From the IMG/VR virus record IMGVR_UViG_3300025731_000014, positions 1 through 26,579 of that record: a stretch of 26,579 nt of DNA, one strand, 5' to 3'. A model generated the notes under the pieces. That model saw only the letters and a list, made by a program, of their open reading frames with translations, did not search any database and was not told the origin of the DNA. Below, in pieces: positions 1-26,579 of the stretch. The position numbers and the translations under genes were made by a program. Every line of letters begins with the position of its first letter. Position 1 is the first letter of the stretch. This stretch comes from a virus (Duplodnaviria > Caudoviricetes).

Positions 1-369
1 GTTTTCATATACCTTCCCATCCGTTAATACTGTGCTATAAATAGTAATGTCTTTATTTTGTAAGGTATCTTTATACTCGTTTAATTGTAGTACTTCCTCT
101 CCTGGTTTAAGAGCATCTAAACGAGCTTGATTTTCAGTAATTCTTTTTAAAATATCCTCGTTTGTTTTAACATATACTATTTTAGGGGTTACATTTTTAT
201 ACCCCTTAAATAATTTATGTATACTATCCATTTTATGAATCATTACCGTATCCCTTTCTACTCTAGTAGTGACAGTATTAGTTGGTGTTCTTCTTAATTT
301 ATTGGCAAAGAGCAAGAGTACTAATATTAAAATTATAATGTGTTCAATTTTTATATCTCTAATTTTCAT
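1..369 (-). CDS. Putative spanin-like / membrane-anchored lysis accessory protein (3' end outside window)
   Basis: Not in the ORF track. ATG at 369 opens 123 codons that run off the window: MKIRDIKIEHIIILILVLLLFANKLRRTPTNTVTTRVERDTVMIHKMDSI...YKDTLQN. It has an N-terminal hydrophobic anchor and sits directly downstream of the endolysin. Confidence 0.55.
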   Translation of the reverse strand, partial: MKIRDIKIEHIIILILVLLLFANKLRRTPTNTVTTRVERDTVMIHKMDSIHKLFKGYKNVTPKIVYVKTNEDILKRITENQARLDALKPGEEVLQLNEYKDTLQNKDITIYSTVLTDGKVYEN

Positions 370-383
370 ATCATTTATATTCG

Positions 384-806
384 TTATACAATAACTCTAT
401 AGCCTAACAAACGTTCTTTCGGGTAACTTGAAATTTTCACTTGATTATTTTGATTTCCTCCAAGCACAAAAATTTTATCATCGATAGCGTTTATAAAAAA
501 ACCAACATGACCTTTCCAACTTTTTTTACTTCCTCTCCAAAAAATAACAACATCACCCATTTGCGGACGATTAGTTTCCATACCAATTTTCAACCAACTT
601 CTAGCATTCAGTTTACCTGTATATGGAGCATCACTAGTTTTTAGCACCCAATTCACAAAGGCAGAGCACCAAGCGGTTTCATCTTTCAACTTGCTAGCGT
701 TAAAACCTATTTCATCAAAGTATTTTAAAATTTCCAGATTATCTTTTTGGCCTACAATCTCTTTTACACCATATTCCTTAAAGGCGATTTCTACATGTTT
801 TTTCAT
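384..806 (-). CDS. TIGR02594-family NlpC/P60-like peptidoglycan hydrolase (endolysin)
   Basis: Motifs DETAWCSAFVNW (catalytic Cys), GDVVIFWR, GHVGFF (His) and LGGNQ; adjacent to holin. Confidence 0.88.
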   Translation of the reverse strand: MKKHVEIAFKEYGVKEIVGQKDNLEILKYFDEIGFNASKLKDETAWCSAFVNWVLKTSDAPYTGKLNARSWLKIGMETNRPQMGDVVIFWRGSKKSWKGHVGFFINAIDDKIFVLGGNQNNQVKISSYPKERLLGYRVIV

Positions 807-937
807 AATTTATCGTGTTTTTTCATCCCAAAAAGCAAACATTTATTTAAACAAATATTCGCTTATCAGGTATGACTGCTTTAATTTATTGTAATATCTA
901 ACTACAAGTTTCATCAGCATTTATGTGCTTCTATTTA

Positions 938-1399
938 CTAAGCTGTTTTGGTGTCTATAGTACTTAGGAATTTTTTGAATAGTTGTATCAATGCATTTCG
1001 TATCGCTTTTAACACCTTTGTTAGTGCATCAAAATTTTCTACTTCCTGCTTTGTTTTTATGGCTATTGCATTACTAAAAATTGAAATTCCGTCACTAACA
1101 ATAAGTAAGTCCATAACTATAGTTACAAACCATTTAAAGTTGTAATTGAGTCCTTTACTCATTAACGCTAAAGCCATTGGAATTAGAAGTACCGCAAGTT
1201 TTGAAACAAAACCAAGCGCTAATATTTTAAAGCTGAATGCTTTTTTTAAAACAATTGTTTTCACTATTCCTAAAAAGGTATCAATAACCATTAAGTAGAA
1301 GAGTACATTTACAATTTCAATATCCATTTCTAAATACATAAAAACCCCGTACAACAGTAATTTTAATTCGTTTGAATACACTACTAGTTTATCTTTCAT
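938..1399 (-). CDS. Phage holin (holin_4-like)
   Basis: Several hydrophobic segments, LMVIDTFLGIVK...GFVSKL...SIFSN pattern and a basic C-terminus; upstream of the endolysin. Confidence 0.75.
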   Translation of the reverse strand: MKDKLVVYSNELKLLLYGVFMYLEMDIEIVNVLFYLMVIDTFLGIVKTIVLKKAFSFKILALGFVSKLAVLLIPMALALMSKGLNYNFKWFVTIVMDLLIVSDGISIFSNAIAIKTKQEVENFDALTKVLKAIRNALIQLFKKFLSTIDTKTA

Positions 1400-1417
1400 T
1401 TGGGTTATTATTAGTTC

Positions 1418-1885
1418 TTATTTGTCGTCTACAATAGATTTTTGAGCGTGATTAAAGTCAATTACGCCTAATAAATTTGTAAACCGTTGCCCAAAAACGG
1501 ACAGCGTTTTATCTCTTTCATTCTCTCCTAGGTTATCACTAATAGTTTCTTGAACTACTCCAAATTGATGTTTAGAGTTTGATGTAATAAAATTGTCGTT
1601 TAATAACTCTCCTGCAACTATATTCCCGCTGATATCAATGCTTAAACTCAATTGTCTTAAGTAGGCAATAAACCCTTTCCATTTTATAATTCGGTAACAG
1701 AAACTAATAGGGTAAATTCCTAAAGCAGCTATGGAAGCAAATAAAAATAGGATCCATTCCGCATAATGCTTTTTTGATTTCAATAGTGTTAATAACAACA
1801 CTATTGCTATTGGTAGCATAACCAATGTGGTAATTAAAAGCCATAGCAATGCCATGACTGTGAAAATAAATTTTACAGTTTTCAT
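1418..1885 (-). CDS. Phage-type membrane protein of the lysis region, function unknown
   Basis: Two N-terminal hydrophobic helices followed by SIDISGN...FG...ETISDNLG...IDFNHAQKSI, a pattern I recognise from conserved phage hypothetical proteins. Confidence 0.55.
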   Translation of the reverse strand: MKTVKFIFTVMALLWLLITTLVMLPIAIVLLLTLLKSKKHYAEWILFLFASIAALGIYPISFCYRIIKWKGFIAYLRQLSLSIDISGNIVAGELLNDNFITSNSKHQFGVVQETISDNLGENERDKTLSVFGQRFTNLLGVIDFNHAQKSIVDDK

Positions 1886-1919
1886 TATATTTATATTTAA
1901 TTTTTTGGTGTAAGAATAA

Positions 1920-1976
1920 CTACACTCGATGTGTGGTAGAAATGGCTAATTCAAATAAGATTTAATCGAGTGTAGT
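1920..1976. repeat. Intergenic inverted repeat (stem-loop) upstream of the lysis cassette
   Basis: ctacactcgat ... atcgagtgtag, an 11-bp perfect stem with a large loop. Confidence 0.6.
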
Positions 1977-1988
1977 ATTTAATGTGTA

Positions 1989-2933
1989 TTATTTTACTAA
2001 TCCTTTTAGCTTTTCAATAAAATACGTTCTAATTGTTTTGTCTTGCATATCTTCAAGACCTAGAGCATTAACATATCCTTGATAAGTAGCTCCTTCAACA
2101 ATTGTTTTACCAGCAGCTATTAATTGTGCTTCTGTTGGAACATGCGTATTTAACCAAGTATGTTCTGTGTCATTAGCTATTGAGGCGTAAATATCTATAG
2201 TTCCGTAGGTTTTATACTCCGTAAAATCTGCTGAGTATTTTCTTGAAAAACTACGTAACACATCGTAAGCCTTCTTTTTAGCTGTACTAATGGCGTCATC
2301 TTCATAAATACCTAGCACAATTTTCATAACGGATAAAGTTAAAGAAGCCCCAGATAGGACGTTATTTCTACGATTATAACCTACAGCTAAAATTTGCCTA
2401 TTGGTTTTGTACTCCTTATATTTTATTTTAGTGTTATTTTCTGAAGTATCTAATGTACCATCTTCAAAATAATACTGCCATTTTTTTTCTTGCGAGAACA
2501 TTCCTCTTTCAGAAGGATTAAACCCCATATCTACACTTTGATACTCATAAGTTTCCGATACTTTAATTACTGGCTTTTTAAACCCTTCTTTTTCATTATA
2601 ATAAATAGTTTCGCTTATTAAACCATCATTAGTTAATTTAACCTCAGGATCTAAACGAACACCTGTGGTTAATTCTGTTTTGTAATTAATAGCAGTAAGA
2701 TCTTTATTCTTAACACTTTTTACACAAATAGAACGCAACAAATGACGTTTTGAATTCTTAACAAACCCATTAACTAAAGCAGTTAATGCTGTGGCATCTG
2801 TATTTACATTAGGAGTAACTATTAATTTATCATTTTCTATTTTTAAACTATCAAGTTTAATATCCTCTAAGTTTAAAAGAATAATTAATTCGCTTAAAAC
2901 GATATCTCCTTTATCATATATTATATTTTCCAT
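1989..2933 (-). CDS. Hypothetical protein, possible tail-fibre assembly/accessory protein
   Basis: 314-aa ORF starting 10 nt after the fibre gene; function inferred from position only. Confidence 0.45.
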   Translation of the reverse strand: MENIIYDKGDIVLSELIILLNLEDIKLDSLKIENDKLIVTPNVNTDATALTALVNGFVKNSKRHLLRSICVKSVKNKDLTAINYKTELTTGVRLDPEVKLTNDGLISETIYYNEKEGFKKPVIKVSETYEYQSVDMGFNPSERGMFSQEKKWQYYFEDGTLDTSENNTKIKYKEYKTNRQILAVGYNRRNNVLSGASLTLSVMKIVLGIYEDDAISTAKKKAYDVLRSFSRKYSADFTEYKTYGTIDIYASIANDTEHTWLNTHVPTEAQLIAAGKTIVEGATYQGYVNALGLEDMQDKTIRTYFIEKLKGLVK

Positions 2934-4561: not shown

Positions 4562-7330
4562 CTATAAATTATTAAAATCGTCTTCAATTACTTTAGTAAT
4601 AAATGTTCCTTCTTTTGCAACTATAATTTCTGCATTATGAGCTACTACATCTCCTATTACATAATTATCTACAGATTCAACATCTAACACAGCTACTTCT
4701 AATGGTTCTTTAATTAACTTAACTGAAGTAATTAGTTTAGTACTTCCTTTTCTATCAATTAAATACATTCCCGAATTAACTTCACCAGCTTTAACCCATC
4801 TTAATACAGTTCCTAAATTATTTTCACTAGTTAATAATGGATGATCTCCTGTTACTTTAATTGTTTTGCCATCATTAGTATTAATTTCATAATACATTAC
4901 AGCTGTCAAACTTTCTTTTTTAACAACAACTACATTTGTTTTTGTTGCATCAGATAATGTTCCTCTCCATTTCATAGTAGCTTCTTTACTTTCAGAAGTA
5001 TCATTTGAAAAAGCAAAACCAACTAACTCGTCACCTTCTTGAATGTTTTTTAGTTTTTTAGAACGTCCGTTAGCTAAAGCAACATATGTTTCTACATCAA
5101 AACATCCACCCCCGCCTCCGGTACTACCAGAACGTTGGTAATTAGCAGACATTTGTACGGAAGTACTATTCACTGCAAGTGTCAATTTAGCTGTACCTAC
5201 TTTTAATCCAAAGTCAGAAGTACTTGTTGCTCCTACTGAAACAATACAATTTAAATCTACATAACCTGAATCACCAATTTCTACTGTAAATGCTCCTTGT
5301 GTAGTAGATGCATTCATATTTACTTTAATATTTCCTGAAACAACTTCTGTTACTCTAAAAATTCCTGTCGCACCAAGTGTTAAGCTTGAATAACTTGGAT
5401 TAATTGTAACTACCTCATCCTGCTTACCGTTAACCCTTACAGTATATGATTGATGAGATGAAGGATTGGTTGGGATAGGACTTGGACTAGTAATTCGTAA
5501 CGATGCCGTTTGAGATACATTAACCGTTATAATTTTCTCTGTACTTACACCTTGAATATCAGTGATAATCAATTTAAATTGATATCCTTGAATTGCTTCT
5601 TGTAAATTTTGAATATTAAACTGTATGTTTTTAGTCCCTAATTCATTACTATAAACTAGTCCGCCTTCATAAGACAATACATTAATTTCTTCATTATTAA
5701 CAACTGCCCCATCACTAATAGTAACGTCATAAGGGTTTCCAGTAACTGGTTCTAATCGATAAGTCATCAAATCATTATCTCCATCAGGATCATTTATATT
5801 AAACATCAAGTTTAATGATCTTAAACCAAAGTTATAATTGTAATTTAATTCCCCTTCAAAAGGTACAGCGTAAATATTATCTATTAATAATCTACTATTA
5901 AATTCATACTCATCATATCTTCTTATATAATTTAATCTTGCGCAACTATTAATCACTGGTGCTAAATTTGCTGCTTGTACAACAACTTTTACCTCATCAG
6001 TAATTATTAATCCATTTGTTTCTACTGTAATCCTAAAAATATGTACCCCAGCATCTAAATTTGTAATCTCTGTTGATTCATCTATATCTGAAGTTATTGT
6101 ACCTGTAGGTGTTACTATAATTTCTGTTCCTGGCCCACTAATTTTGGTCCATGTATAATCTCCACTAATAGTTGCAGATGAAGTCAGTTTTCCTGTCAAA
6201 TTAATATTCACAGAAGTAACGTCGTTTGCTAAACTGATATTCTGATCTATTCCTGCACTTATAGTAGGATAATCCTCGTTACCAATATATATAATATAAA
6301 AAACATTTAATATTCCATTACTAGGACTCGTTGAATCAATACCATTCGGCACTAAATTTGGGATAACAATACCGCTTGGCACACTAGTGTTATTCCCATC
6401 GCAAGCTACCCAACCACTTGGAATACTTCCAGAGGATGTATTCCATAAAGCTATTAAACCTAATGGCACTGCCCCTTTAATTTGTCCAGCTCCTTTAGTT
6501 ACAAAACCAGAATTATCAATTAGTAATGGCGTAGCATCTGAACTATTCGCGACTATATTGTTCAATTTTAGTTTACCATCAATAACAGTATTTTCCCAAT
6601 CTGAACCATAATTTAAATACAAGCTAGTTTCAATATCAGTACTATTATCAACTAAGGCTCTTCCTAAATAATCTCCTGGATGTAATTGACCTCTTCTATC
6701 TGGATGACCTAGTCTAAAATCAGCAGAACGTACTTTAGCAGAAAAAGATGGATTGGTATCTAAATTAGATAATTGATGCCCTCCTAAATCTAAATCGCCT
6801 TCCATCGCCTTGGAACCATCTAAAGGTAAAAACTTACCTAAAATATCTGGAATTGATGCTAATGTTTCAAAGGTAGCAAGGTTATAATATGTAATAGTCT
6901 CCAAAGGAGTGCTAGGATCGATAATGGGTGCTTCTAAAGTAATACCTACTCCAGTTGCTTCGCTTGTAGCAACATACGCTGCGCTATAGTCAATATATAC
7001 ATTTTGAGGTACTCCAGTACCAAAAGTTAATGGGGATAATACTTTTTTTGTTTTTAGATAACTCGTTTCTGGCGTTATTAGGATCGGGTATAAAATCCCT
7101 TGTAATGTATACGTCCCAGGGGTCTCTAAATTTTCACTTTGTTGATGAATTATCGCCCAACCAATTTTATTTTCGGTAGGTTTTGATATAATGTAGTTTC
7201 TGTCTTCTTCTATTCCCCATTGCTCTTTTAACGCACCGAATAATTCAGTTCTAAAAGCTGCTTGTAATCTAGCAAAGGTTTCTTGTTCTAATGGAAACCC
7301 ACCAGGTTTTGTAAAATTTATTTGTTTCAT
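4562..7330 (-). CDS. Baseplate-proximal tail fibre/adhesin with collar-like, PKD/Ig-like and C-terminal Hint (intein-like) domains
   Basis: N-terminal GGFPLEQETF; collar-like VPLGLIALW...IPSGWVACDG; PKD-like AGIDQNISL...YTWTKISGP...GVHIFRITV; Hint motifs GGGGG-CF, TGDHP and VAHN. Follows the baseplate wedge genes. Confidence 0.8.
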   Translation of the reverse strand: MKQINFTKPGGFPLEQETFARLQAAFRTELFGALKEQWGIEEDRNYIISKPTENKIGWAIIHQQSENLETPGTYTLQGILYPILITPETSYLKTKKVLSPLTFGTGVPQNVYIDYSAAYVATSEATGVGITLEAPIIDPSTPLETITYYNLATFETLASIPDILGKFLPLDGSKAMEGDLDLGGHQLSNLDTNPSFSAKVRSADFRLGHPDRRGQLHPGDYLGRALVDNSTDIETSLYLNYGSDWENTVIDGKLKLNNIVANSSDATPLLIDNSGFVTKGAGQIKGAVPLGLIALWNTSSGSIPSGWVACDGNNTSVPSGIVIPNLVPNGIDSTSPSNGILNVFYIIYIGNEDYPTISAGIDQNISLANDVTSVNINLTGKLTSSATISGDYTWTKISGPGTEIIVTPTGTITSDIDESTEITNLDAGVHIFRITVETNGLIITDEVKVVVQAANLAPVINSCARLNYIRRYDEYEFNSRLLIDNIYAVPFEGELNYNYNFGLRSLNLMFNINDPDGDNDLMTYRLEPVTGNPYDVTISDGAVVNNEEINVLSYEGGLVYSNELGTKNIQFNIQNLQEAIQGYQFKLIITDIQGVSTEKIITVNVSQTASLRITSPSPIPTNPSSHQSYTVRVNGKQDEVVTINPSYSSLTLGATGIFRVTEVVSGNIKVNMNASTTQGAFTVEIGDSGYVDLNCIVSVGATSTSDFGLKVGTAKLTLAVNSTSVQMSANYQRSGSTGGGGGCFDVETYVALANGRSKKLKNIQEGDELVGFAFSNDTSESKEATMKWRGTLSDATKTNVVVVKKESLTAVMYYEINTNDGKTIKVTGDHPLLTSENNLGTVLRWVKAGEVNSGMYLIDRKGSTKLITSVKLIKEPLEVAVLDVESVDNYVIGDVVAHNAEIIVAKEGTFITKVIEDDFNNL

Positions 7331-7401: not shown

Positions 7402-8112
7402 TTACGATACTATTGATGATGAATATTCGTAGGCATACGATTCATAGGTTTTTCCTGCTAATTTGTAAAAATTCAGTAAGTTATGATACTTCGTTGTACG
7501 TACTTCAATAGCTCCTGCTATTGCTTTTACAGGATCCTCATGTGGTTCAAAATACAAGCTGTTTGTAATTTCTAGTAATTTTTGAGCTCGTTCAATTTCA
7601 GATGCATCTCCATCTCCATCAATATCAAAAACTTCAACTTTTCCTTTAATATTTAAATTTTCTGGAATGAATACTCTAAAATTAGCATAATGAATTTCCG
7701 TATAATCCTCTCTACTAGCTAAATACAATGGACTCCCTTGATTTGAGGTAATTTCATTGTGTAAATACACTTTTGGTGACAAAAAACCATCCGTTTCATA
7801 CTCATCATGTAGATAAACAAATTGCAAAGTTGGTTTTAATGTTTCATCAATATATATTAAACCATTAGCCTGTTTTTCTAAGGTAGAATAATTAGGGTTG
7901 TATATTTTTTCAGGGTTGAACGCCTCATTTAATAACTTTTCCAAAGAAATTACTTGCCCAGTATGGTTCATGTTATACAAAGTAGTTTCATAAATACTCC
8001 TTAGTGGTTTAAACAATACGTTTAACCAACTGTAGTGGGTTTTTTTTCTAAAAATTGGTGGGATTAACAATAACAATAGTTTCTCCCAATGAATTGTGGT
8101 ATACTGCTTCAT
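7402..8112 (-). CDS. Baseplate wedge subunit (gpI-like)
   Basis: Lies between the gpJ-like gene and the fibre. It has LLIPPIFRK, TGQVISLEKLLN and a C-terminal YKLAGKTY, typical of Bacteroidota tail modules. Confidence 0.7.
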   Translation of the reverse strand: MKQYTTIHWEKLLLLLIPPIFRKKTHYSWLNVLFKPLRSIYETTLYNMNHTGQVISLEKLLNEAFNPEKIYNPNYSTLEKQANGLIYIDETLKPTLQFVYLHDEYETDGFLSPKVYLHNEITSNQGSPLYLASREDYTEIHYANFRVFIPENLNIKGKVEVFDIDGDGDASEIERAQKLLEITNSLYFEPHEDPVKAIAGAIEVRTTKYHNLLNFYKLAGKTYESYAYEYSSSIVS

Positions 8113-8123: not shown

Positions 8124-9221
8124 TTATGCGTTTCTATTATCTCTGTAAAATGTATATGGAATGTAGTTTACCTCTATTTTCAAAGCCTCCTTTAAGTTGA
8201 AATAACCTGCCTTTGGAATAAAGTATTCTATATCTTGTAATACCCTATTTCCATCTACTATATCTATTCCTTTTACTATATTAAAATCTTCAGGATTATC
8301 AGCACTAATTGATGCTATTGCTGTATTTACTTTTTTCAAAATAGGGATTCTAACACCTTCTGATTGCTGAACAGCATCAACTAAATAGGACTGTACAAAA
8401 GCACCGTTAAATTCAATGTTTCTTAAGTATTTATTAATAGCTTCTTCAACTGGCTTTACTGAAGGATCGGAAATTAACACCCCATTATTGGTATCAAAAG
8501 GATGAGTACTATCACTTGGAAATTTACCATCTTCAATCAAAGCCTTGTAAGGTTCAATATCGTTAGGGCTTATATACACCGTTAATGGATCAACATAAAC
8601 ATCTAGTTTTAACACTAATTGATCACCTTTTGTTGAGGTTATGTGTACTTGATTCCCTGCATCTTTAATACGTGCGATATACTCCTTAAAAGCTGGTAGA
8701 TCATTTACATTCAAGGCTTCAATATTCCCACTATTTTCGGTAGCTACTTTAATAAAAACAACTCCTACTTGATGATGAAAATAATCAGAAAAAACTTGTG
8801 TTACTGTGGTATCTGGTTTAATTACTGTACTTAAATCTACCTCACTTACGGCACAATATTTTACTATTTTTTTAGCATCTAGTTCTGAGGCATCCAAATC
8901 AGTGGTATCAAATTGATAAGAACCGTTTTCCCAAATCAAATCTTGTCCATGTACAAAATTTAATGCTTGATTTCTATACCAACTTAATGTATGTGGTCTG
9001 GATACTAATGCATTTCTTTCAACTATTTTTTCATGCATCCAAATAGCGGTTGCCATAATATGTACCCAAAGTCTCCATATAGCTACTTTGGATGTATTTG
9101 TTAATTCACTTCCTAATGAACCTCTTTCTTTTATGGAAAGAATATCAAGTGTCGAAAGCGAGTCGGCTTTCCCTTTAGCAACAAGAATGTCGCTTTGTAT
9201 TTCAGCAATTGTACGTGCCAT
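8124..9221 (-). CDS. Baseplate wedge subunit (gpJ-like)
   Basis: MARTIAEIQ...SKVAIWRLW...PHTLSWY...IKDAG...FNG...LVDAVQ pattern plus synteny after the LysM and gp25-like genes. Confidence 0.75.
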   Translation of the reverse strand: MARTIAEIQSDILVAKGKADSLSTLDILSIKERGSLGSELTNTSKVAIWRLWVHIMATAIWMHEKIVERNALVSRPHTLSWYRNQALNFVHGQDLIWENGSYQFDTTDLDASELDAKKIVKYCAVSEVDLSTVIKPDTTVTQVFSDYFHHQVGVVFIKVATENSGNIEALNVNDLPAFKEYIARIKDAGNQVHITSTKGDQLVLKLDVYVDPLTVYISPNDIEPYKALIEDGKFPSDSTHPFDTNNGVLISDPSVKPVEEAINKYLRNIEFNGAFVQSYLVDAVQQSEGVRIPILKKVNTAIASISADNPEDFNIVKGIDIVDGNRVLQDIEYFIPKAGYFNLKEALKIEVNYIPYTFYRDNRNA

Positions 9222-9341: not shown

Positions 9342-9641
9342 TTATCCGATAATAAAATCGTCTTCAAGAGTCATGTAATCAATACCACAAATGTTGGCTA
9401 ACAACAATTCTTCTGCTGTTGCTCCTGTAGCTGGATGTGTATTGTTTGATTCATAATAAGCTACAATATCCTTTTTAAAGGCTGCTCTTCCTACTTTTAA
9501 ATCTTCATATACTGATATGTCTTCTGTAATATCATATTGATCATTGTCGTCTAACACATCAAATACGGTTTCGATACTTCCATACTCTTGTAAGGCAACA
9601 TCAAAAATATTTTGATTGTCCTGTGGCTTAATAGTTCCCAT
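9342..9641 (-). CDS. LysM-like (gpX-type) baseplate protein
   Basis: QNIFDVALQEYGSIETVF LysM-like start and C-terminal GIDYMTLEDDFII; overlaps the upstream gene by 14 nt. Confidence 0.72.
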   Translation of the reverse strand: MGTIKPQDNQNIFDVALQEYGSIETVFDVLDDNDQYDITEDISVYEDLKVGRAAFKKDIVAYYESNNTHPATGATAEELLLANICGIDYMTLEDDFIIG

Positions 9642-10085: not shown

Positions 10086-10150
10086 GTAAAAATACAGTAA
10101 AGTGAAAGTGTTACCTAAAAAACAAGCTTCCCTAATCTGTAGTTTCAGTA
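10086..10150 (-). promoter_or_regulatory. Conserved box TACTGAAACTAC (10139-10150) plus -7-like element; drives the wedge/fibre/lysis unit
   Basis: One of five exact copies; TATTTTTAC begins at 10094, a 45-nt offset from the box. Confidence 0.75.
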
Positions 10151-15965: not shown

Positions 15966-15966
15966 A

Positions 15967-16643: not shown

Positions 16644-17384
16644 ATGAAACACTATTTTATCACCCTTTTTCTAGTACTAAGCCTTAGCCTAAATGCACAA
16701 GAAACCGCAACTATTGATACTCCTACACAAACCGAATTGCGTAGTGAAATAAGTAAAAAACATGATGATGGTACTAAAAAACAAGAACGTTTTTTTAATA
16801 CTGAAAACAAAAAAGTAAAAACTATTAATTATTATGAGAATGGAAAAACAGCCTCTGTATTTACTTTTTATGAGAACGAAAAAAACAAAACTGGGACACA
16901 GTATAATAAAAAAACTGGAGAAATAGATCAAAAGCGCTTCTATTACAATAGCGGTAAAACAAAAGCTAAGATTTACTATGAAACGGTATATAATAGTACT
17001 GCTCAAAAACAAGAATTAAAGCCACAACGCATGTATTTTTATTATGAAAATAAGAAAGAAAAATTTGTAGCTTCATGGCAATATGGAACCTTAAATGATA
17101 TAGAATATTATAATAGTGAGGGGCACAAAATACGTAATGTAGGCCTTTCCTCAAAAGGGTATAAAGTAACCGAAGCATTTTGGTATTACGGCCATATACA
17201 CGGTTGGGCATTCGGATATGACAAGGGGGGGAATATTATTGATAAATCTTTTAGCTATAAAGGTAAACCTGCAGACCCTGCAGATTACCCTGAATGGGAA
17301 AAACATATTACCGAGTTTGATAAAATACCAGCCTTGGAAAAAGAATTGGATGGGTTGTTGCATCAATATGAGTTAGTGAAATAA
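16644..17384 (+). CDS. Secreted MORN-variant repeat (YwqK-like) protein
   Basis: Signal peptide MKHYFITLFLVLSLSLNA-Q and repeated YYENGK / YYNSGK / YYNSEG units. Confidence 0.75.
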   Translation: MKHYFITLFLVLSLSLNAQETATIDTPTQTELRSEISKKHDDGTKKQERFFNTENKKVKTINYYENGKTASVFTFYENEKNKTGTQYNKKTGEIDQKRFYYNSGKTKAKIYYETVYNSTAQKQELKPQRMYFYYENKKEKFVASWQYGTLNDIEYYNSEGHKIRNVGLSSKGYKVTEAFWYYGHIHGWAFGYDKGGNIIDKSFSYKGKPADPADYPEWEKHITEFDKIPALEKELDGLLHQYELVK

Positions 17385-17638: not shown

Positions 17639-18874
17639 TTAATTTTCTTTTATTTCTTTTTTAATCTCATTTACTGCTTTTCCTAAAATAATTTCTTGTC
17701 TAAAACCTCCTTGCCCAAAGGTATAGTTTACCGCATCAACATAATAATCAGTATTTCGGTGCGTTTCTTCTTCCTCTGTTTTTTCTTCTTTTTCACGCAA
17801 CTCCACTACACCACCATGGCGTACAAAACCACCAAAGGTTTTTACATCGGTATCGCCTGTGTACAACACATCGCCAAAAGTAGTTAAGCTTCCTCTAAAG
17901 CCCTCATAAACCAATTGTTTTAATTTAGTGTCCGCTAAACTTTGATATTGAGTTGAAAAACCCTCTTCAGAAAAACCATCATCTGAGTCCTCACCTCCAC
18001 TTAAATCTACCTCTGAAGTATTAATGGTATAACTGATGGTTTGAGTTATACCTTCTTTTATTACAACTTCTTCTCCATTTTCTTTGAGTAACTTCCCTGA
18101 AATATCTTTTTTATCTGTTACCGTTTTACCGGTAATTTTATATTTTACTGCTACACTTACATCCTCTAAACTTTTGTACTCCAATTGGTCGGCAATAATA
18201 TTGTTGTAAAACTGAAATACTGGCCTTGGTTCCTTTTTACTAGGGGGCTTTTCTTTTGGATGTGGGGTAGCGGTAATGTGTAAATAGGGCATGTAGGTAA
18301 TACCTTTTTTTTCACAACGGATAAAGCTATGCAATCCGTACTCATCGCGCAAGCGTTCCAACACCTGCATTGGGGTTTGTTCCTTTACCTCAAAATGCCC
18401 TAAATTAAGGTCAATAATATCATCAGAAAGTTGTATTGTCCCTTCTTTAATTTTTGCACTAAAAACTTTGTCTGCTAATAGGTCTTGTACCGTTTTACCG
18501 TCATAAATATTGTTTATCAGCCCTGTTTTTAGTTTATACATGTGGTCCTCACAAATAAGCTCAATAGGTGTGCGTCCTTTTACATCGCGTATAATACCTT
18601 TAAAGGCTAAATTTACTGGGGTGTCCTCTTTATCCAAATCATAGCCTAAATACACTTCAATTTCTGGGCGGTCTTTAGACCATTTTTTTAGCTTATCGCG
18701 TAATTTAGTTTCGCCTAAATCCTTTTGCATAAAACGTGGTAAACTTATTATTGCAGTGTCAGTAAAATTACGCCAGGAGCTTTCTATTTGTATTTCGTGT
18801 ACAAAATTGAGTGTAAACGGCTCTTCATCAGCTCCGTTTTCATATATATCTATTTTACTATGTAATATTTTCAT
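17639..18874 (-). CDS. Baseplate hub (gpD/late-control-D-like)
   Basis: IESSWRNFTDTAIISLPR, VYLGYD, FKG, CEDHMYKLK, GSLTTFG and YYVDAVNYTFGQGGFRQEIILG, a typical hub pattern. Confidence 0.82.
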   Translation of the reverse strand: MKILHSKIDIYENGADEEPFTLNFVHEIQIESSWRNFTDTAIISLPRFMQKDLGETKLRDKLKKWSKDRPEIEVYLGYDLDKEDTPVNLAFKGIIRDVKGRTPIELICEDHMYKLKTGLINNIYDGKTVQDLLADKVFSAKIKEGTIQLSDDIIDLNLGHFEVKEQTPMQVLERLRDEYGLHSFIRCEKKGITYMPYLHITATPHPKEKPPSKKEPRPVFQFYNNIIADQLEYKSLEDVSVAVKYKITGKTVTDKKDISGKLLKENGEEVVIKEGITQTISYTINTSEVDLSGGEDSDDGFSEEGFSTQYQSLADTKLKQLVYEGFRGSLTTFGDVLYTGDTDVKTFGGFVRHGGVVELREKEEKTEEEETHRNTDYYVDAVNYTFGQGGFRQEIILGKAVNEIKKEIKEN

Positions 18875-19519: not shown

Positions 19520-20257
19520 TTAAAAAGGATTTAACCCTGATGCTAATGATCCTGCAGCAGCAATACCTTGTTGTTTTAACTCGCCTAAAAAGTTTTGTTT
19601 TACTTCCAATGGCACTTCCGATATGGCATTAAAGCTAAAAGGTTGTATGTTTTTAACCCCATCGTTCCCAGGGAAATTAAAGTCGGTAATTACCAATTCA
19701 AAAATTCCTAGTTTGTGTAATACGGAGTTGGTAATTTTTAATTCTCCTTTATGTTCCATTAACTTACGCAGCACCACCACTTCTGCAGTTGGATATCCAG
19801 TACCATTAGAAGCTATTATTCCGTTAACGGTTATGTTATGGTCATTATTTGAAATAAACTCCTTTATGGTATAGTCCCTTCCTTGTACGGCAGTAGTTAC
19901 AATGTTTTTACTACGGCTAACTTCCAAGGACACGCCATCAATTTTAAATCCTGATGCAGCACCTAATGCTTGCTTGGCAACATCTAAGGCAGCTCCTTTG
20001 CCTCCAATTTTTATAGGAAAGTGAATAATTAATGGGGCAAAAACGGGTAAATTAAAGCTCCCTCCGGTAATTGTAAAAGCGTCAATTTCAGTTAAATCCT
20101 GCAAGGGTTCAAAAAAAACATCCTCAGTTAAGGATTTTAAGTTATTGGCATATTCCGACGCACTAGTACTGTTTAACAAATTACCTACTGATGTAGCGGT
20201 ACTTTTTGCCTTAATACTATTTAGTAAATTCGGAATACTATATGAAAAATTACTCAT
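19520..20257 (-). CDS. Tail tube initiator (DUF6046/gpU-like)
   Basis: VSRSKNIVTTAVQGRDYTIKEFIS...ITVNG...QPFSFNAISE; lies between tape measure and hub. Confidence 0.78.
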   Translation of the reverse strand: MSNFSYSIPNLLNSIKAKSTATSVGNLLNSTSASEYANNLKSLTEDVFFEPLQDLTEIDAFTITGGSFNLPVFAPLIIHFPIKIGGKGAALDVAKQALGAASGFKIDGVSLEVSRSKNIVTTAVQGRDYTIKEFISNNDHNITVNGIIASNGTGYPTAEVVVLRKLMEHKGELKITNSVLHKLGIFELVITDFNFPGNDGVKNIQPFSFNAISEVPLEVKQNFLGELKQQGIAAAGSLASGLNPF

Positions 20258-20502: not shown

Positions 20503-22032
20503 TTAGGCCATCATACCTTTAGTAACGTTAACGTTTTGTTCAATTTCAACATCTCTAAGGGCGTCAAGCAATACTTTTTTAACTGTTGATTTTACTTCTA
20601 CAGCTGATTCTTTTAAATTGGTAACGTTTATATTCAAGGTTTGAATAAGCGAGTTGATCGTGATTGCTTTTTGAGAAACACCAGCCAAATTAGCACTATT
20701 ACTTACTCCTGCATTAGAGTAACTTTTAGCCGTATAATGACTGCTTTTAATTACAGCACCATCCGCACTATCTTCTTTTTTTGATTTTCCTTTTGCATCA
20801 GAAAGCGTAAACTCCTTTTTTTCTTTCTTTTTAGGATCTTTTTCAGCTTCTTTTCTTACTTTTTCAAGTCTATCGGTATCCAAGCCAAAAAAACCTGCTA
20901 CTTTAATTAATTTATCCGTAATCCAACCAAAAAAGCTCCCTATTGATTCTTTTATGGATTTATAAATACCGGAGAATATTTGACTAATTTTATTCCATAA
21001 ATCAATTAAAGGCTGTACCGCGGGCTCAATAAATTCCCAAATTGCTTGTCCAACTGCACTGAAAAACCCAACAAGTTTTTCCCAAACTTGTGCAAATATG
21101 TCGCCAATTACGGCTATCATTCCTCTAAATTCAGCTATGTTTTCCCATAACCATTCAAATGACTTGATTACTACTTGTACAGCTGTAACAATGGCCATAA
21201 TAATTCCAATTGCTAAAGCAATAGGTGGAGTAAGTCCTGCAACAACAAGTCCTATTCTTCCTAAAACCGGTAATAACCTTCCTACTACTGGGATTATTCT
21301 TCCAAAAACACTTAAAATTGGTCTTAAAACTCTTGTTACAGTGCCCATTACTGGGCCTAATTTTCTAAAAAGCTTTGTTATTTTAATAGCTCCTTTTGTC
21401 AATCCTTTTCCGACAATTGGTATTTTTCTAGCCTTCATCATCCCCTTGGTTAAGACAGTTCTCTTAACTGTTTGAGCTGCTGCCCCTCCACCGGCAAACC
21501 CATTTATGGGATTCCTAACTGGTAATACTGCATCACAGCAGCAGTCTGTACTTTTACCGGCAATACTTTTTATTTTATCAAAAACACTTAGTGCTTTGCT
21601 TAAAATATTTCTTTTAAGTTTTATACTACCACCCGTAACAAAAACTTTTTGAACTGCATTTGTACTAGTGCCTGTATTCCCATTTGCATTTTTTGAAGAG
21701 GAAAACATGCTTTTAAAATTATCCCAAGCCTGTTTGATATTATTAAATTCTCCTGTAATTTTACCAACCTTTTCGATAACCTTAAGCAGTTTACCAATAA
21801 AACCTCCTTTTTCCGTAGATTTCTCTACTACTTTTTTTGGCTGTGCAACTACTGTTGCAAATTTTTCTATTGAATTAGAAAACTTTGCAACAGAGTTGTC
21901 AAAAATACTCGATACACCATATTGATTAATCGTAATGGCATTTGAAGCACTTTGACTTGTGCTAACAGCTACTTGAATATTGGTTAAAATATTCGTTATT
22001 TTATTTAATGTAGTCGTTATATTATCATTCAT
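20503..22032 (-). CDS. Tape-measure-like protein (short)
   Basis: Helical protein with a hydrophobic segment (PIALAIGIIMAIVTAV), regularly spaced W/F residues and C-terminal ITINSLIQTLNINV; follows the tail chaperones. Confidence 0.78.
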   Translation of the reverse strand: MNDNITTTLNKITNILTNIQVAVSTSQSASNAITINQYGVSSIFDNSVAKFSNSIEKFATVVAQPKKVVEKSTEKGGFIGKLLKVIEKVGKITGEFNNIKQAWDNFKSMFSSSKNANGNTGTSTNAVQKVFVTGGSIKLKRNILSKALSVFDKIKSIAGKSTDCCCDAVLPVRNPINGFAGGGAAAQTVKRTVLTKGMMKARKIPIVGKGLTKGAIKITKLFRKLGPVMGTVTRVLRPILSVFGRIIPVVGRLLPVLGRIGLVVAGLTPPIALAIGIIMAIVTAVQVVIKSFEWLWENIAEFRGMIAVIGDIFAQVWEKLVGFFSAVGQAIWEFIEPAVQPLIDLWNKISQIFSGIYKSIKESIGSFFGWITDKLIKVAGFFGLDTDRLEKVRKEAEKDPKKKEKKEFTLSDAKGKSKKEDSADGAVIKSSHYTAKSYSNAGVSNSANLAGVSQKAITINSLIQTLNINVTNLKESAVEVKSTVKKVLLDALRDVEIEQNVNVTKGMMA

Positions 22033-22243
22033 TACTAAATAGTTTTGCGATTGCTTTACTCATTATATATTCTTGTTGTTCTTCTTTAAACTCGTGTATC
22101 CACAACGCCTCTCCCAATAGTTGATGAAATTTTTCTTCTGATAACAGATACGGATCTGTTTTAAAATAGTATCTAATTAGAGCCCCAGCTTTCAGGAGCT
22201 CATCCTTTCCTTCTTCTTTCGAAATAAGGAAAGGATCTAGATC
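22025..22243 (-). CDS. -1 frameshift extension of the tail assembly chaperone (gpGT-like)
   Basis: 72 open codons (DLDPFLISKEEGKDELLKAGALIRYYFKTDPYLLSEEKFHQLLGEALWIHEF...LFSNE) entered at A-AAA-AAG; the stop overlaps the start of the tape-measure gene. Confidence 0.8.
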   Translation of the reverse strand, partial: DLDPFLISKEEGKDELLKAGALIRYYFKTDPYLLSEEKFHQLLGEALWIHEFKEEQQEYIMSKAIAKLFSNE

Positions 22244-22578
22244 TTTTTTGCCTTTGCCTCCTTTGGTTGTGTTAAGTCAGCAAATGCAGAAATTACTCCT
22301 AATTTTAAATCATCATCTTTTGACACCTCTTCATCACCACCTATATAACAGTTTTTAAACAATACTTCCAAGGCTCTAAACTCATCGGTTTTAGAAGCTT
22401 GCAATACTGCTGCTCTGGTTGCCATAGTTGGTTTACGGAAATAACTGAATAATGTTTCTTCTTCATCATTTTCAATTTCCACTTTTATCAATTTTCCGTA
22501 CTTGTTTTTCCAAGCCGTTAATTGTTGTAAAGTGATATTTCCGTCTAATACTTTTGTTGTTTTTTTTGTAGTCTCCAT
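22237..22578 (-). CDS. Tail assembly chaperone (gpG-like)
   Basis: QLTAWKNKYG...YFRKP...LFKNCYIGGDEE; lies between tube and tape measure. ATG 22578 (METTKK) is preferred over the longer ORF call. Confidence 0.8.
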   Translation of the reverse strand: METTKKTTKVLDGNITLQQLTAWKNKYGKLIKVEIENDEEETLFSYFRKPTMATRAAVLQASKTDEFRALEVLFKNCYIGGDEEVSKDDDLKLGVISAFADLTQPKEAKAKKI

Positions 22579-22845
22579 TTTTATTTGTTTTGTTTTTATT
22601 ATTTTGTTTTGTGTGCCTTTAATAACAACCATAGTTATTTTGTTTTTAACTGTTTTATAGTTAAAAATACAGCCCCATTTGTATTGTGGATTTTGGGGCT
22701 GTATTTAGTATCAGGTAACTTTTAAATAACTCTACTAAATAATTTTATTCGTAAATTTTATCGAAATATATAAGACATATCCATGTCCAGATGAGTTTTA
22801 AAAGTATACTGATAGTATAGAAAGGCTACGAGAGTTTTCTTTACT

Positions 22846-23271
22846 TTAACTCCATTGAATGTGAGATATTCTAAATTCATATTCAGACTCAATCTTAGTA
22901 TCTCCTTGTTTCATGTCTCTTTTGTTTGTTAAAAACTCACAGTTTCTAATAACATGATTGATAATTTGATCACTGTCATCCAAATAAGATACTGTAATAT
23001 CAAAAGGAGGAATATCTTGCAAACGTTTACCTGAAGGTAACGCAGCCTGTAATGAGTCTATTTCATAAGCATAAAAAGAAGCTTTTGCAGTGGCACTATA
23101 TTTTCCTGTTCCTCTGTGTACAGGCATATTACCTGCTCCATAATGGTTTACTTTTTCTACTGAGTCTTCATAACTCACTGCAGTAATCCCTGTAAAAGTT
23201 CTTCCTAATGCATCAAATGAAATTGAACTCCAATCACGTCGTTGTCCGTTTATTAATGGTAATGTATTCAT
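22846..23271 (-). CDS. Tail tube protein
   Basis: 141 aa, LINGQRRDWSSI...ITAVSY...YGAG..PV.RG.G.Y...PFDITVSY...IRNCEF; directly after the sheath. Confidence 0.88.
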   Translation of the reverse strand: MNTLPLINGQRRDWSSISFDALGRTFTGITAVSYEDSVEKVNHYGAGNMPVHRGTGKYSATAKASFYAYEIDSLQAALPSGKRLQDIPPFDITVSYLDDSDQIINHVIRNCEFLTNKRDMKQGDTKIESEYEFRISHIQWS

Positions 23272-23307: not shown

Positions 23308-24675
23308 TTAGGCTTTATCAACTCCAAAAGGGTTTTTAAATCCTAGATCTACACTAATTCTACGTGCTGTTCCAACTGGAGTAACTTCTGCTTTTATTTT
23401 TAATTCAGATGTTGCTAAAATGTTTTGTTTAGGATCAACATATACATCAAAAGCTGACACTTCCTGATTAGAAACCATTCCTTCTAAAGCAGCTCTACAT
23501 AAGTTTTCAAAAGATTTAGTAACTGATTGCTGTAAATTACCATTTGAATTTACTTGAATAGCCATAGCTAATCTTGGTAATAATGCAGTACGTAATAAAC
23601 GAACAGCTTTGTTAATGGTACGGTTGTTTTCAATGTATGTGAAATCTGATGTCCCTAACGTACAAGTATGACTATCGTTAAAGTATACTCCTGGTAAACC
23701 TGTATGCGTTCTAGCAAAAATGTACTTACTGTCGTTTAATGTATTTAAGGTTCCAATAGTTTTCACTTCTTTACCACCTACAAAAGCAGCTTTACCAAAA
23801 CCTTCACCGCTTACATTAAATTTTTGAATCCATGCAATGTTTTCAGAAACTTTTGCTTTTGATACCGCTCCTAACACCATTCCTACAGCTGCAGAATCAG
23901 TATACGTTTTTGCTTTTTCAGCATCCATAGCTACTACTACTGATACATTTTCTGCATTTAATTCTTTTAAGTCAATTGCTGCATCTACATCAAATTTTTT
24001 CCCTTCTAAAATGATTTCAAAAGGCATGTAATCTTTGTACGCATTATTTGCTTCTGTTTGTGCCGCTTGAACCGCTTTAGTTGTTGAAGTTGATTCTCCT
24101 TGAACTGTACCAAATTCTGAAACAGTACCTGAAAAGATTACTGCCATTTGGCGGATAGCTCCATTAGCCTCTTCTTGCATTGCTTTTGCTTTTGACACAA
24201 CATCGTTGTAAGCAGTCGCTGCTACTGCTGGTACTCCTACTACTTGAGGGCTAGCTGAAAGATCTTCTACTACTTCTGCAACAGCTTCATTAGCTTTGGT
24301 TCCCATAATGAATAAATCTCCTGAAGGATTCATTCTGAAAAATTGCTCAATTTGATAGTGTGCAGATTGAGTTTCGCTGTCATAGTCAGCATCAATCCCT
24401 AGTGCTTCTGCATCTTCTACAGAGGCCAAGCGATACAATTTTTCTTGTTCAAATAACTGTACCATACCTTCTCCTTTGGCTGCGTCATATGGCGTAGCTG
24501 GAGCACTTGGTGCAACACTTGAATAAGTTGTTTCTAATTTTCCGCTAACTAATTTCTTTTCTTCAAAGATATTGTCTCCGTCAAAAAGCAGTCCAGAAAC
24601 CATGTCTTGGTCAGGATTTCTTCTTCCTAATCCACCTGATAGTTTGTTAATTACTACGTCGTTTAATGTACCCAT
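23308..24675 (-). CDS. Contractile tail sheath protein (DUF2586-like)
   Basis: GLGRR, YQIEQFFRMNP, GVYFNDSHT...DFTYIENNRTINKAVR and a C-terminal PVGTARRISVDLGF sheath signature. Confidence 0.9.
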   Translation of the reverse strand: MGTLNDVVINKLSGGLGRRNPDQDMVSGLLFDGDNIFEEKKLVSGKLETTYSSVAPSAPATPYDAAKGEGMVQLFEQEKLYRLASVEDAEALGIDADYDSETQSAHYQIEQFFRMNPSGDLFIMGTKANEAVAEVVEDLSASPQVVGVPAVAATAYNDVVSKAKAMQEEANGAIRQMAVIFSGTVSEFGTVQGESTSTTKAVQAAQTEANNAYKDYMPFEIILEGKKFDVDAAIDLKELNAENVSVVVAMDAEKAKTYTDSAAVGMVLGAVSKAKVSENIAWIQKFNVSGEGFGKAAFVGGKEVKTIGTLNTLNDSKYIFARTHTGLPGVYFNDSHTCTLGTSDFTYIENNRTINKAVRLLRTALLPRLAMAIQVNSNGNLQQSVTKSFENLCRAALEGMVSNQEVSAFDVYVDPKQNILATSELKIKAEVTPVGTARRISVDLGFKNPFGVDKA

Positions 24676-24886
24676 AATATATATTTAATTGTTTAAGGTT
24701 TTAAAAATTGTACATACCTTTGGCCGTAATGAGTAGTTTTGAGCTCATTATTTTCGTGGTTTATGTGTTAAAATTATTTGTGTGTCCCCTCGAAAATGAG
24801 GTTACTTTTTTAAAGTGAATAACTTGTATTCCTTCTTCAAATTTATCATCAATATGATGTGGTAAAAGTGTTATTTGCTAGCAGAA

Positions 24887-24950
24887 CAAATTTACAATTA
24901 GCTATTGATTTCACCTACTTTTTTGAACCGTGAAATCAGTAGTTTCAGTA
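24887..24950 (-). promoter_or_regulatory. Conserved box TACTGAAACTAC (24939-24950) plus consensus -7 box TAAATTTG; drives the sheath-to-hub unit
   Basis: Exact copy; a perfect Bacteroidota TAnnTTTG at 24887-24894, 45-nt offset. Confidence 0.8.
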
Positions 24951-24952
24951 CT

Positions 24953-25132
24953 TTAGGCACTAGCTTGTAACGAAACCCCTTCATTTATAATAGTATAAAT
25001 AGTACGTTCCGTTAGGAATAATGACTCTGATAATTCCGCAACAACAACTTTCATTTGCTTTGCTTGATTAATATTAATATAGTTTAATACAAAGTCCCTT
25101 CTTTTGTCCAATAATATTCTGCTTCTTTTCAT
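24953..25132 (-). CDS. 59-aa Mor/C-like HTH DNA-binding protein (candidate activator)
   Basis: Not in the ORF track. MKRSRILLDKRRDFVLNYININQAKQMKVVVAELSESLFLTERTIYTIINEGVSLQASA; ELS..LFLTERTIY.II resembles the Mu Mor/C C-terminal HTH. Confidence 0.7.
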   Translation of the reverse strand: MKRSRILLDKRRDFVLNYININQAKQMKVVVAELSESLFLTERTIYTIINEGVSLQASA

Positions 25133-25188
25133 TAGTTTAGTTTAATTTTTTTTGTTCTTACTTTTGTTTAAAATCAATTTTCAAACAA

Positions 25189-25989
25189 TTATTTTTTAAT
25201 CTCTACTACTTTAATTTCTCGAGAATCAATTTCATTTGTGTCAACGTTTTTCACTTTATTACCTATGGTATCTATAGTTTCAAATGCTATTACATCACCA
25301 TTCTCGTCTAGGGTTACTGAATTATCTTCGGTACTGTCATTATCTAAGTCTGAATTTTTTATAATACTAGCTTCATTAGTTCCATTGAAATTAGTAGACT
25401 CGTTTGAACTCGTATTAATAAACAGCTTCCCTTTTACGGTGTTTTGATTGTATAAACCAATATAATTACCGTCCGTTCCTGAAGTTAAATCATACCCCAT
25501 ATCAATTAAATCACTTTGAGAATGTCCGTTGTAAATAAGATTATACTTCTTTTTAATACTGGTATCAACAAGGAAAGTTTTATAGGTCATTTCCCAAATA
25601 AAGTATTTTGTTTTATCCCAATTATCTAGCTCATTACTATATTGTTTCTCTCCTGCTTTAAATATGTTTTTTTCATCTATTAAATCTCCTGCAGTATTTG
25701 TATTAAATAAAATTGCTTTGTCAACACTATGAGCTACGTCAAAAACTGATTCATAATCTTGCCCTGTAGATGGCAATACTATATATATGCAAAAAGTAAC
25801 TTCACCATTATGGATTTTCTCAGAAGTAGATTGCCACTTTATATTATCATACTTGAACATTAGTAGAGGTTCCGCAATAGATGCACTAAAAACATTGTCA
25901 TTATATAGACTAACTTTAGTAATGTTATGAACGTTAGCTTCGTTTATGAGGCGTGCTTTTTTCTCCGTATAAAAATCTTTTAGAATCAT
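25189..25989 (-). CDS. Tail completion/terminator-like protein with an acidic C-terminal extension
   Basis: The first ~150 aa (VSLYND...PLLMFKY..IKW...IWEMTYKT) resemble tail-terminator folds, and the position upstream of the sheath fits. Confidence 0.5.
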   Translation of the reverse strand: MILKDFYTEKKARLINEANVHNITKVSLYNDNVFSASIAEPLLMFKYDNIKWQSTSEKIHNGEVTFCIYIVLPSTGQDYESVFDVAHSVDKAILFNTNTAGDLIDEKNIFKAGEKQYSNELDNWDKTKYFIWEMTYKTFLVDTSIKKKYNLIYNGHSQSDLIDMGYDLTSGTDGNYIGLYNQNTVKGKLFINTSSNESTNFNGTNEASIIKNSDLDNDSTEDNSVTLDENGDVIAFETIDTIGNKVKNVDTNEIDSREIKVVEIKK

Positions 25990-26008
25990 ATGTTGTAATT
26001 ATTTTTGA

Positions 26009-26073
26009 CAAATATCAAACATATGTTTTGATTATACAGCATCATATTACGGATATTAACAGTAGTTTCAGTA
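26009..26073 (-). promoter_or_regulatory. Conserved box TACTGAAACTAC (26062-26073) plus -7-like GATATTTG; drives the first unit
   Basis: Exact copy; the -7-like box is at 26009-26016, a 46-nt offset. Confidence 0.75.
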
Positions 26074-26288
26074 ATATGTCTTAATTTATGCAATTGAAAA
26101 GACCATTCACCCCAACAAACAAACATTTAATCTATTGATTTTCATTAATATAGTTTTTTATTGAAAAAAAAGCTGATTTTAAGATATTTTAACCAATTAT
26201 TACTTAATTTTACAACATATTATGGATTACTAGTCTAAACACCTTAAATAAAGATAAACATATTACATAATGATAAAAAAATACCCCA

Positions 26289-26579
26289 ATGGAAATACAT
26301 GCCAGAATAAAACACATTATTGAGCTGTTAGATTTAAATAATAATTCGTTTGCTAAACGAATTGGAGTCACTAGTACCACCGTAGATAGTATTACCAACG
26401 GAAGACTACAGTCAGACGGAAATAGAAAACGCACTAAACCGGGTTTTGATTTATTAAATAATATTATTGCACAATGTAAAGTGAATTCAGAATACCTATT
26501 TGGTAACAGTGATATTGTGTTTGTAAACGAAAAATCAAATGTGCCTCATTTAGGAATGCCTAAGGTTATTACTGTAAAT
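26289..26579 (+). CDS. CI/XRE-type repressor, N-terminal part (3' end outside window)
   Basis: Not in the ORF track. MEIHARIKHIIELLDLNNNSFAKRIGVTSTTVDSITNGR...KPGFDLLNNII...VNSEYLFG is an XRE HTH, divergent from the tail cluster. Confidence 0.8.
   Translation, partial: MEIHARIKHIIELLDLNNNSFAKRIGVTSTTVDSITNGRLQSDGNRKRTKPGFDLLNNIIAQCKVNSEYLFGNSDIVFVNEKSNVPHLGMPKVITVN

Follow-up and report, generated by a model that had tools for sequence, protein, structure and literature searches.

The 26.6-kb stretch analysed here (26,579 nucleotides, IMG/VR record IMGVR_UViG_3300025731_000014, hereafter the window) is classed as a virus in the database and was cut from a longer, apparently chromosomal contig. 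It carries the genes of a contractile phage tail without a head. The minus strand follows phage order, with a completion gene, a gene for a small protein of 59 amino acids (aa) and the genes for sheath, tube, chaperone, tape measure protein (TMP), DUF6046 protein and hub, succeeded by a probable spike, gp25, wedges J and I, three fibre-type genes, a holin and a CHAP lysin (Table 1). The original prediction, made from the letters alone, stated that all parts of a contractile tail were present with intact frames, and every part it named is indeed an open frame on the minus strand. Pfam- and PHROG-type family scans covering 26-28 open reading frames (ORFs) of the window revealed no capsid, portal, terminase, integrase or replication gene and, as had been foreseen, no AAA ATPase and no extra tube or sheath paralogue. 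The repressor was likewise correctly placed next to the completion gene without head or replication genes between them, the two forming a divergent pair 299 bp apart. The host, a marine bacterium, is presumably a member of the Flavobacteriaceae, since the nearest named relatives belong there.

The sheath model (AlphaFold2, predicted local distance difference test score 83) showed the sheath fold, with the sheaths of diffocin and pyocin as best Foldseek matches (E 1.5e-9 to 2e-9). Because the diffocin, pyocin and Afp sheaths all matched at E ~2e-9 with only 10-15% identity, the sheath fold cannot choose among them. Sequence searches of the PDB with sheath, spike and tube gave no significant match, and the spike also matched nothing in Pfam or PHROG. 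The C-terminal motif of the TMP was recovered at E 1e-7 in a leave-one-out test, and a homologue search with the window TMP matched only the window TMP itself. A weak profile link connects the completion gene with prophage completion genes (P 0.002). The Hint domain of the main fibre (4562-5100) is followed by ~20 residues to the end of the protein; self-cleavage is possible.

Table 1. Features of the window, with position, strand and the basis of each assignment (HTH, helix-turn-helix; TM, transmembrane)
Feature	Position	Strand	Basis or remark
Start of 202-aa protein, N-terminal membrane anchor, putative spanin	1..369	-	cut at window end
CHAP / TIGR02594 lysin	384..806	-	domain scan
Holin	938..1399	-	Pfam and PHROG match
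Two conserved unlabelled genes (314 aa; 155-aa membrane protein)	1418..2933	-	conserved in relatives
Fibre, 518 aa	2944..4500	-	PHROG match
Main tail fibre, 922 aa, PKD domain and C-terminal Hint domain	4562..7330	-	domain scan
Baseplate wedge I	7402..8112	-	Peternella tblastn match
Baseplate wedge J	8124..9221	-	PHROG; Peternella tblastn match
99-aa conserved baseplate gene, putative LysM/tail-X-like slot	9342..9641	-	label from position
gp25-like sheath initiator	9628..9915	-	weak Pfam match; Peternella tblastn match
Promoter box, baseplate-lysis unit	10137..10150	-	box search
Probable fibre / receptor-binding protein, 662 aa	10302..12290	-	only N-terminal motif common to other fibres
Promoter box, fibre-662 unit	12536..12549	-	box search
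84-aa conserved gene 3' of spike	13270..13524	-	conserved in relatives
Probable central spike, 324 aa	13533..14507	-	position; weak BLAST links to prophage genes in same slot
Promoter box, spike unit, degenerate -7	14707..14720	-	box search
Three-gene module (177 aa, HTH 135 aa, 155 aa)	15013..16425	+	family scan, repeat search
246-aa protein, signal-like N-terminus, MORN-like repeats by eye; possible orphan immunity	16644..17384	+	open frame; no family match
Baseplate hub	17639..18874	-	PHROG E 6e-39
DUF6046 tube initiator / hub-1	19520..20257	-	family and PHROG matches
TMP, 509 aa, two predicted TM segments	20503..22032	-	PHROG E 3e-12
-1 frame T extension, ~70 aa, giving GT	22025..22249	-	41-46% identity to C-terminus of relatives' second chaperone
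Tail assembly chaperone G, terminal slippery A-run	22237..22632	-	Peternella tblastn match; frame analysis
Tail tube, not T4 gp19 family	22846..23271	-	PHROG match; Peternella tblastn match
Tail sheath, DUF2586	23308..24675	-	DUF2586 E 2e-69; PHROG tail sheath 1e-40
Promoter box, sheath unit, 42 bp before TAnnTTTG	24937..24950	-	box search
59-aa small HTH-like protein, candidate activator	24953..25132	-	sequence
Tail completion / terminator-like protein, 266 aa	25189..25989	-	Atlas structure, TM-score 0.66-0.69 to tail-terminator families
Palindrome AACA-N2-TGTT, likely repressor operator	26018..26027	.	just before -7 element of early promoter
Promoter box, early unit (completion and small HTH)	26060..26073	-	box search
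S24-type repressor, N-terminal HTH part	26289..26579	+	cut at window end; 270 aa in full in L008

Head and packaging genes were also sought beyond the window, as had been advised. Locus L008, identical to the window over 13.3 kb, extends 5.6 kb beyond its right end, and locus L075, 99.99% identical over 10.8 kb, extends 9.6 kb beyond its left end; no head genes were found in either flank. The left flank came from a metagenome scan, the viral-collection scan having given none. To the right lie the full 270-aa S24 repressor, a relaxase, MobC, an excisionase-like gene, unlabelled genes and a tRNA-Met, the last of which lies at the opposite end of the locus in L076 and L077. To the left lie the membrane-anchored 202-aa gene, a response regulator, a tetratricopeptide repeat histidine kinase and a SIR2-like gene. 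The last of these and the probable HerA ATPase after it (L075:17632-20419) form a pair which we take to be a defence system. Besides L075, the regulator-kinase flank recurs in four of nine near relatives viewed (L079, L081, L082 and L083). In Dokdonia, folC/tRNA-Val on one side and def/galE-type genes on the other border the locus (identified by eye), and the Flavobacterium loci have a common gene order with differing flanks. As to conserved synteny at one site, which the original prediction had proposed to examine, flanks are shared among near relatives of the window and within Dokdonia but differ among the Flavobacterium loci.

The best phage matches of the sheath are Flavobacterium and Winogradskyella myophages at 28-32% identity. 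Peternella_1 of the Winoviridae has the tail order of the window and matches nine of its tail proteins, the tblastn matches comprising wedges J and I, gp25, chaperone, tube, DUF6046 protein and hub. This Winogradskyella phage is described as Mu-like and myoviridal in the accessible part of its report (PMC8776804). With the Winoviridae (Peternella_1 and the Flavobacterium phages lotta8-1, pippi8-1 and FPSV-S1) the window shares the sheath (28-32% identical), the tube (44% identical) and the order sheath-tube-chaperone-TMP-hub-hub, whereas it is without protease, capsid, portal, terminase, neck and transposase genes and has a repressor of its own, an operator-like palindrome and a box regulon. 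The Clp protease, capsid, portal and neck given there as core head genes of the Winoviridae (PMC8776804, in part) were found neither in the window nor in the flanks L008 and L075. The sheath and tail-protein matches identify the Mu-like Winoviridae group of Bacteroidota myophages as the tail donor, narrowing the earlier proposal of a domesticated Bacteroidota myophage tail. In the same partial source, Peternella_1 has a 669-aa TMP and a table value of 105.8 nm, read here as tail length, against which the 509-aa TMP of the window predicts a tail of ~80 nm.

A tree computed from 42 sheaths places the window within a clade of 25 rows (support 100/99), of which all 16 with visible context are headless and the remaining nine are proteins without context. 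The sheath phylogeny suggested in the original prediction thus groups the window with headless loci and leaves 14 prophage rows outside, together with three unrelated headless-looking loci (G292, G375 and G501). G501 has a capsid match on another contig. The separate headless DUF2586 tails of G375 (L023-L024) and G292 (L025-L026) retain a TMP, and with neither a portal nor a capsid match in these two genomes they are possible independent domestications. Head genes were also sought genome-wide in the clade, many of whose genomes are drafts: a capsid profile matched in one of 22 genomes (controls 2/2) and the Mu portal family in one of 21 (controls 4/4), leaving 21 and 20 genomes, respectively, without a match, and both matches belong to G717, ~590 kb from the tail locus.

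The ratio of nonsynonymous to synonymous substitution rates (dN/dS) was 0.005-0.44 in 30 of 31 pairs, one pair being saturated; it was lowest for tube, hub, lysis and repressor genes (tube and hub down to 0.005-0.07) and highest for spike and fibre. These values indicate that the core genes are kept under purifying selection. The 120 best protein matches listed are 49-76% identical, the named ones being mostly from Flavobacterium. Four close matches were found among 151 relatives of a Flavobacterium, and the 59-aa gene stands beside the sheath in seven of 401 genomes of an order-wide sample.

A 14-bp box, TACTGAAACTACTG, matches six times in the window at no more than two mismatches versus 0.28 expected, and five of the six matches fall between genes, in coding-strand orientation, each heading one unit (completion, sheath, spike, fibre-662 or baseplate). 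The several transcription units of the original prediction can thus be specified as five units sharing one promoter box. A TAnnTTT element, which we take to be the Bacteroidota -7 element, lies 42 bp after the box at three sites and is degenerate at two. In three Flavobacterium genomes, all 21 genome-wide matches to the strict box pattern lie inside the locus (reversed control 0), one match was found in five genomes without the locus, and the box with this spacing was not seen in the prophage loci scanned. In the early promoter of all 18 loci examined, the palindrome AACA-N2-TGTT immediately precedes the -7 element, and the Ala-Gly, Ser and Lys motifs for cleavage and catalysis are intact in the repressor. 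By analogy with the PrtR/PrtN regulation of R-type tailocins (PMC4684702, accessible part), the repressor and the 59-aa protein, the latter as activator, may form a similar cascade. Identity of the box with a known Bacteroidetes SOS motif was rejected, as both motifs in the available part of PMC8565304 differ from box and palindrome. Homology of the 59-aa protein to a 71-aa prophage gene beside the completion gene was also rejected, with no BLAST alignment and only a short pattern by eye.

Nineteen other loci were compared with the window. No TMP was found in any of the 19 within the DNA fetched, nor by a TMP profile in the nine genomes of Flavobacterium and Dokdonia relatives searched (control 1/1). 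Instead, 14 loci carry one or both of two toxin-like genes, here called slot 1 and slot 2, while five have neither toxin nor TMP. The slot-1 gene, usually directly after the chaperone, has a conserved N-terminus with 159 matching proteins, and its C-termini form 33 clusters among 126 sequences of at least 250 aa (the 120 listed matches and nine from the loci studied here, some overlapping). Its labels include Ntox15, AHH, EndoU, CdiA-C, deaminase, NS endonuclease and Tox-MPTase2/4, with 18 of the 23 proteins scanned bearing no toxin label. Slot 2 (~930-1400 aa), preceded by the box in Flavobacterium, has C-terminal M23, lysozyme, GH108, GH19, CHAP or DUF3990 domains in eight of 13 scanned. The genes 3' of the toxins vary as well (Tdi1, YezG-like and Imm11 families, orphan arrays). 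These polymorphic toxins with variable neighbours are likely the cargo of the relatives' tails, into which they would be loaded. A precedent for TMP-related cargo exists in Streptomyces contractile injection systems (CIS), according to the accessible part of PMC13277306. Homology between the toxin N-termini and the C-terminal motif of the TMP, alike by eye, was rejected (profile scores up to 5 bits; hhalign probability no higher than 6%).

Other large genes were observed at some of these loci. A 1140-aa protein without Pfam match is encoded after the lysis cassette under its own box (L076:10675-14329, also L077 and L078); in L078 it is succeeded by a toxin-like gene of 679 aa and a series of small ones. 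In L210 (9469-17140), a 732-aa DUF4280 (PAAR-like) fusion follows the spike and precedes an array of small variable genes.

The window chaperone has a terminal slippery A-run and a 70-aa extension in the -1 frame, an arrangement that several prophages share. This extension is absent from the first chaperone in 12 relatives; in nine loci, a second gene encodes both G and T in a single frame, and its T part is 41-46% identical to that of the window in the four compared. That both chaperones persist where the TMP is absent suggests a different client in the tube lumen, for which the toxins are the simplest candidates. In quick trees of tube, DUF6046 protein and hub, the window is sister to nine TMP-less loci, a grouping with Shimodaira-Hasegawa-like approximate likelihood ratio test values of 92, 99 and 100; the branch in the hub tree is long, and the wedge J tree is unresolved.

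Among known systems, the window fits best with the R-type tailocins, as an element resembling them that stems from a new donor group. As in the R-type tailocins (R pyocins, Pseudomonas Rp groups and diffocin), a headless contractile tail with TMP (for the window, from the genes alone), a lysis cassette, a cleavable repressor and the sheath fold come together, the spike being the weak member of the tail set. Cargo genes within the cluster, as in the relatives, are likewise known from R-type tailocins (PMC4684702, accessible part). The window differs from them in donor phage group, phylum and its five box-marked units, and its relatives differ in the loss of the TMP and the gain of polymorphic toxin slots. 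Compared by published criteria (PMC6899500, in part), extracellular CIS (eCIS) of the Afp/PVC/MAC type resemble the window in the headless injection particle, predicted from its genes, and the relatives in the likely carriage of protein toxins, and true eCIS operons of Dokdonia share the promoter box with the headless tail. Unlike them, the window has a single sheath and tube and no gp19 tube, Pvc16 cap or AAA ATPase: its tube had no PF06841 match, where Dokdonia eCIS tubes match at 1e-36 to 1e-48, and neither the Afp16/Pvc16 cap nor the Afp15 AAA ATPase was found among 26 window ORFs. The Streptomyces CIS effectors Sle1 and Tme, as far as the available text of PMC13277306 goes, are a precedent for cargo in the TMP slot or resembling TMP with variable C-termini; they belong to eCIS-type loci with DUF4157 partners, unlike the toxins here, whose N-termini are without supported TMP homology.

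Some relatives resemble the Bacteroidetes type VI secretion system subtype iii (T6SS-iii) in their DUF4280 PAAR-like genes and toxin-immunity arrays. The window, in contrast, has J and I wedges, fibres, a holin and a lysin, and its ORFs include no TssB/C, no Hcp above the cut-off, no ClpV and no membrane complex, a single sub-threshold TssD score falling on the chaperone. The distinctness from eCIS and T6SS-iii stated in the original prediction is hence borne out by gene content. No description of this locus type was found in the literature covered, outside which lie subscription journals and preprint supplements, and DUF2586 gave no paper. The accessible text of the PhageTAILor preprint does not mention it, and the figures and closed supplements of that preprint may hold Flavobacteriales tailocin calls.

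Taken together, the locus probably descends from a Mu-like Winoviridae prophage, of which it keeps a headless tail under purifying selection, and it likely serves as an R-type tailocin that kills related bacteria. On DNA damage, cleavage of the S24 repressor would free the early promoter, and the 59-aa protein would then activate the box-marked promoters of the sheath, spike, fibre and baseplate-lysis units. The ~80-nm tail would assemble on the TMP; the presence of holin and lysin implies release by lysis, after which the fibres would bind the target and the sheath contract. With its TMP, G/GT frameshift and phage gene order, the window retains the phage state, and it is best read as an early form of the toxin-carrying lineage.

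Several findings weigh against this interpretation. Only three of the five window boxes fit the strict spacing pattern, a relaxase/MobC element and tRNA-Met adjoin the repressor (L008:46-5107), and the headless state at the window's own site is judged from ~42 kb around the locus. The sheath tree disagrees with those of tube, DUF6046 protein and hub in placing the window within the TMP-less loci, and a constraint that keeps these loci together is borderline for the sheath (approximately unbiased test, p-AU 0.057); an early-branching position is favoured, on these trees, over a re-acquired TMP-hub module. The distribution is patchy, with the locus in 11 of 34 genomes of the Dokdonia sample; nine of 401 family genomes exceed the DUF2586 cut-off, most of them prophages. 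At the locus site, chaperone, hub and baseplate genes are missing from G555 and G569, and the tail core from L082-L084, which retain the repressor, a degenerate completion gene, one fibre and lysis genes and sit beside a large toxin-like gene pair.

Such patchiness and degraded copies, together with the foreign inserts that break the window cluster, would fit a decaying prophage remnant without host function. The intact frames, the low dN/dS, the single headless clade spanning genera and the boxes placed ahead of each rearranged unit, absent from prophage loci, make this quite improbable. Of the decaying, single-strain distribution that the original prediction had set as a counter-sign, some decay was encountered, while confinement to one strain was not.

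It is also unlikely that the locus is kept mainly to provide a canonical eCIS of the same host with a switch and with lysis functions, the tail genes being passengers. In two Dokdonia genomes (G002 and G003), the box also precedes eCIS operons with Pvc16, sheath and gp19 tubes (L171:1340-8499, L173:1550-9000 and L174:1176-8410) as well as satellite fibre genes. Furthermore, in 13 of 20 genomes with the 59-aa protein, it stands beside a more distant repressor without a DUF2586 sheath, and in all five of these that were fetched it adjoins an eCIS-like cluster (by eye), though the box was not found at those five loci; in L082-L084, switch and lysis genes outlast the tail core. On the other hand, the 21 strict boxes of the three Flavobacterium genomes are all inside the tail locus, and tube and hub evolve at the very low dN/dS given above. 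In L196-L203 and L212-L213, the distant repressor and 59-aa module was observed with holin-like, toxin-immunity, fibre and lysin genes beside the eCIS-like cluster. Six copies of the box promoter, spaced by 170 bp, lie ahead of a fibre-like gene in G003 (C4:455268-456178, L172), and a 436-aa gene unlinked to the box (L172:14077-15387) has a glycosyltransferase domain scoring against the TcdA/TcdB family.

A particle aimed at eukaryotes or surfaces (algae, protists, animal larvae), or one that stays cell-bound, has equally little to recommend it over a bacteriocin. The several fibre genes with immunoglobulin-like and Hint domains, the co-regulation with eCIS in Dokdonia and the lack of an antibacterial toxin gene in the window TMP slot would be in keeping with it, but the cargo-slot proteins of relatives end in peptidoglycan hydrolases or nucleases followed by immunity-type genes, holin and lysin imply lytic release, and no membrane-anchor complex was found among the ORFs. 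A helper-dependent element that lends its tail to, or parasitises, the heads of another Winoviridae prophage is the least credible, for despite the Winoviridae-like tail genes and completion protein and the separate Mu-like prophage in G717, 21 of 22 clade genomes have no capsid match, no locus has neck or adaptor genes, and the relatives have lost the TMP needed for DNA ejection.

Beyond the probable tailocin, a wider scenario is conceivable, although we hold it to be somewhat less likely to be right than wrong. The Flavobacteriaceae may have evolved a toxin-injecting machine of their own from a Mu-like tail, separately from Afp/PVC eCIS and from T6SS. In this scenario the window would be the surviving first step, with the head lost, a new regulon gained and the TMP kept; polymorphic toxins of two classes, nucleases and cell-wall hydrolases, would then have taken the place of the TMP and be brought into the tube by the old G/GT chaperones, and the switch would also have taken over resident eCIS operons. 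How a phage tail turns into a protein-injection machine tends to be discussed by comparing very remote end points, whereas here donor phages, a TMP-bearing headless form and toxin-bearing forms can be aligned within one family, and cultured named relatives are available (Dokdonia ponticola and several soil Flavobacterium species). The toxin-carrying lineage is more surprising than the window itself. It suggests that a group dominant in sea and soil possesses a weapon hitherto unrecognised, its C-terminal toxin types number at least 33, many of them without a label in Pfam, and it provides a candidate for a regulator of Bacteroidota eCIS.

The tail cluster of the window is interrupted by four opposite-strand genes (15013-17384). 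The 246-aa protein encoded by one of them had no family match in the scans, and the other three form a module which we would liken to a toxin-antitoxin-chaperone system. This module is flanked by a 66-nt direct repeat of 91% identity, with copies at 14827 and 16473 (window 14827-16538), which suggests a small insertion.

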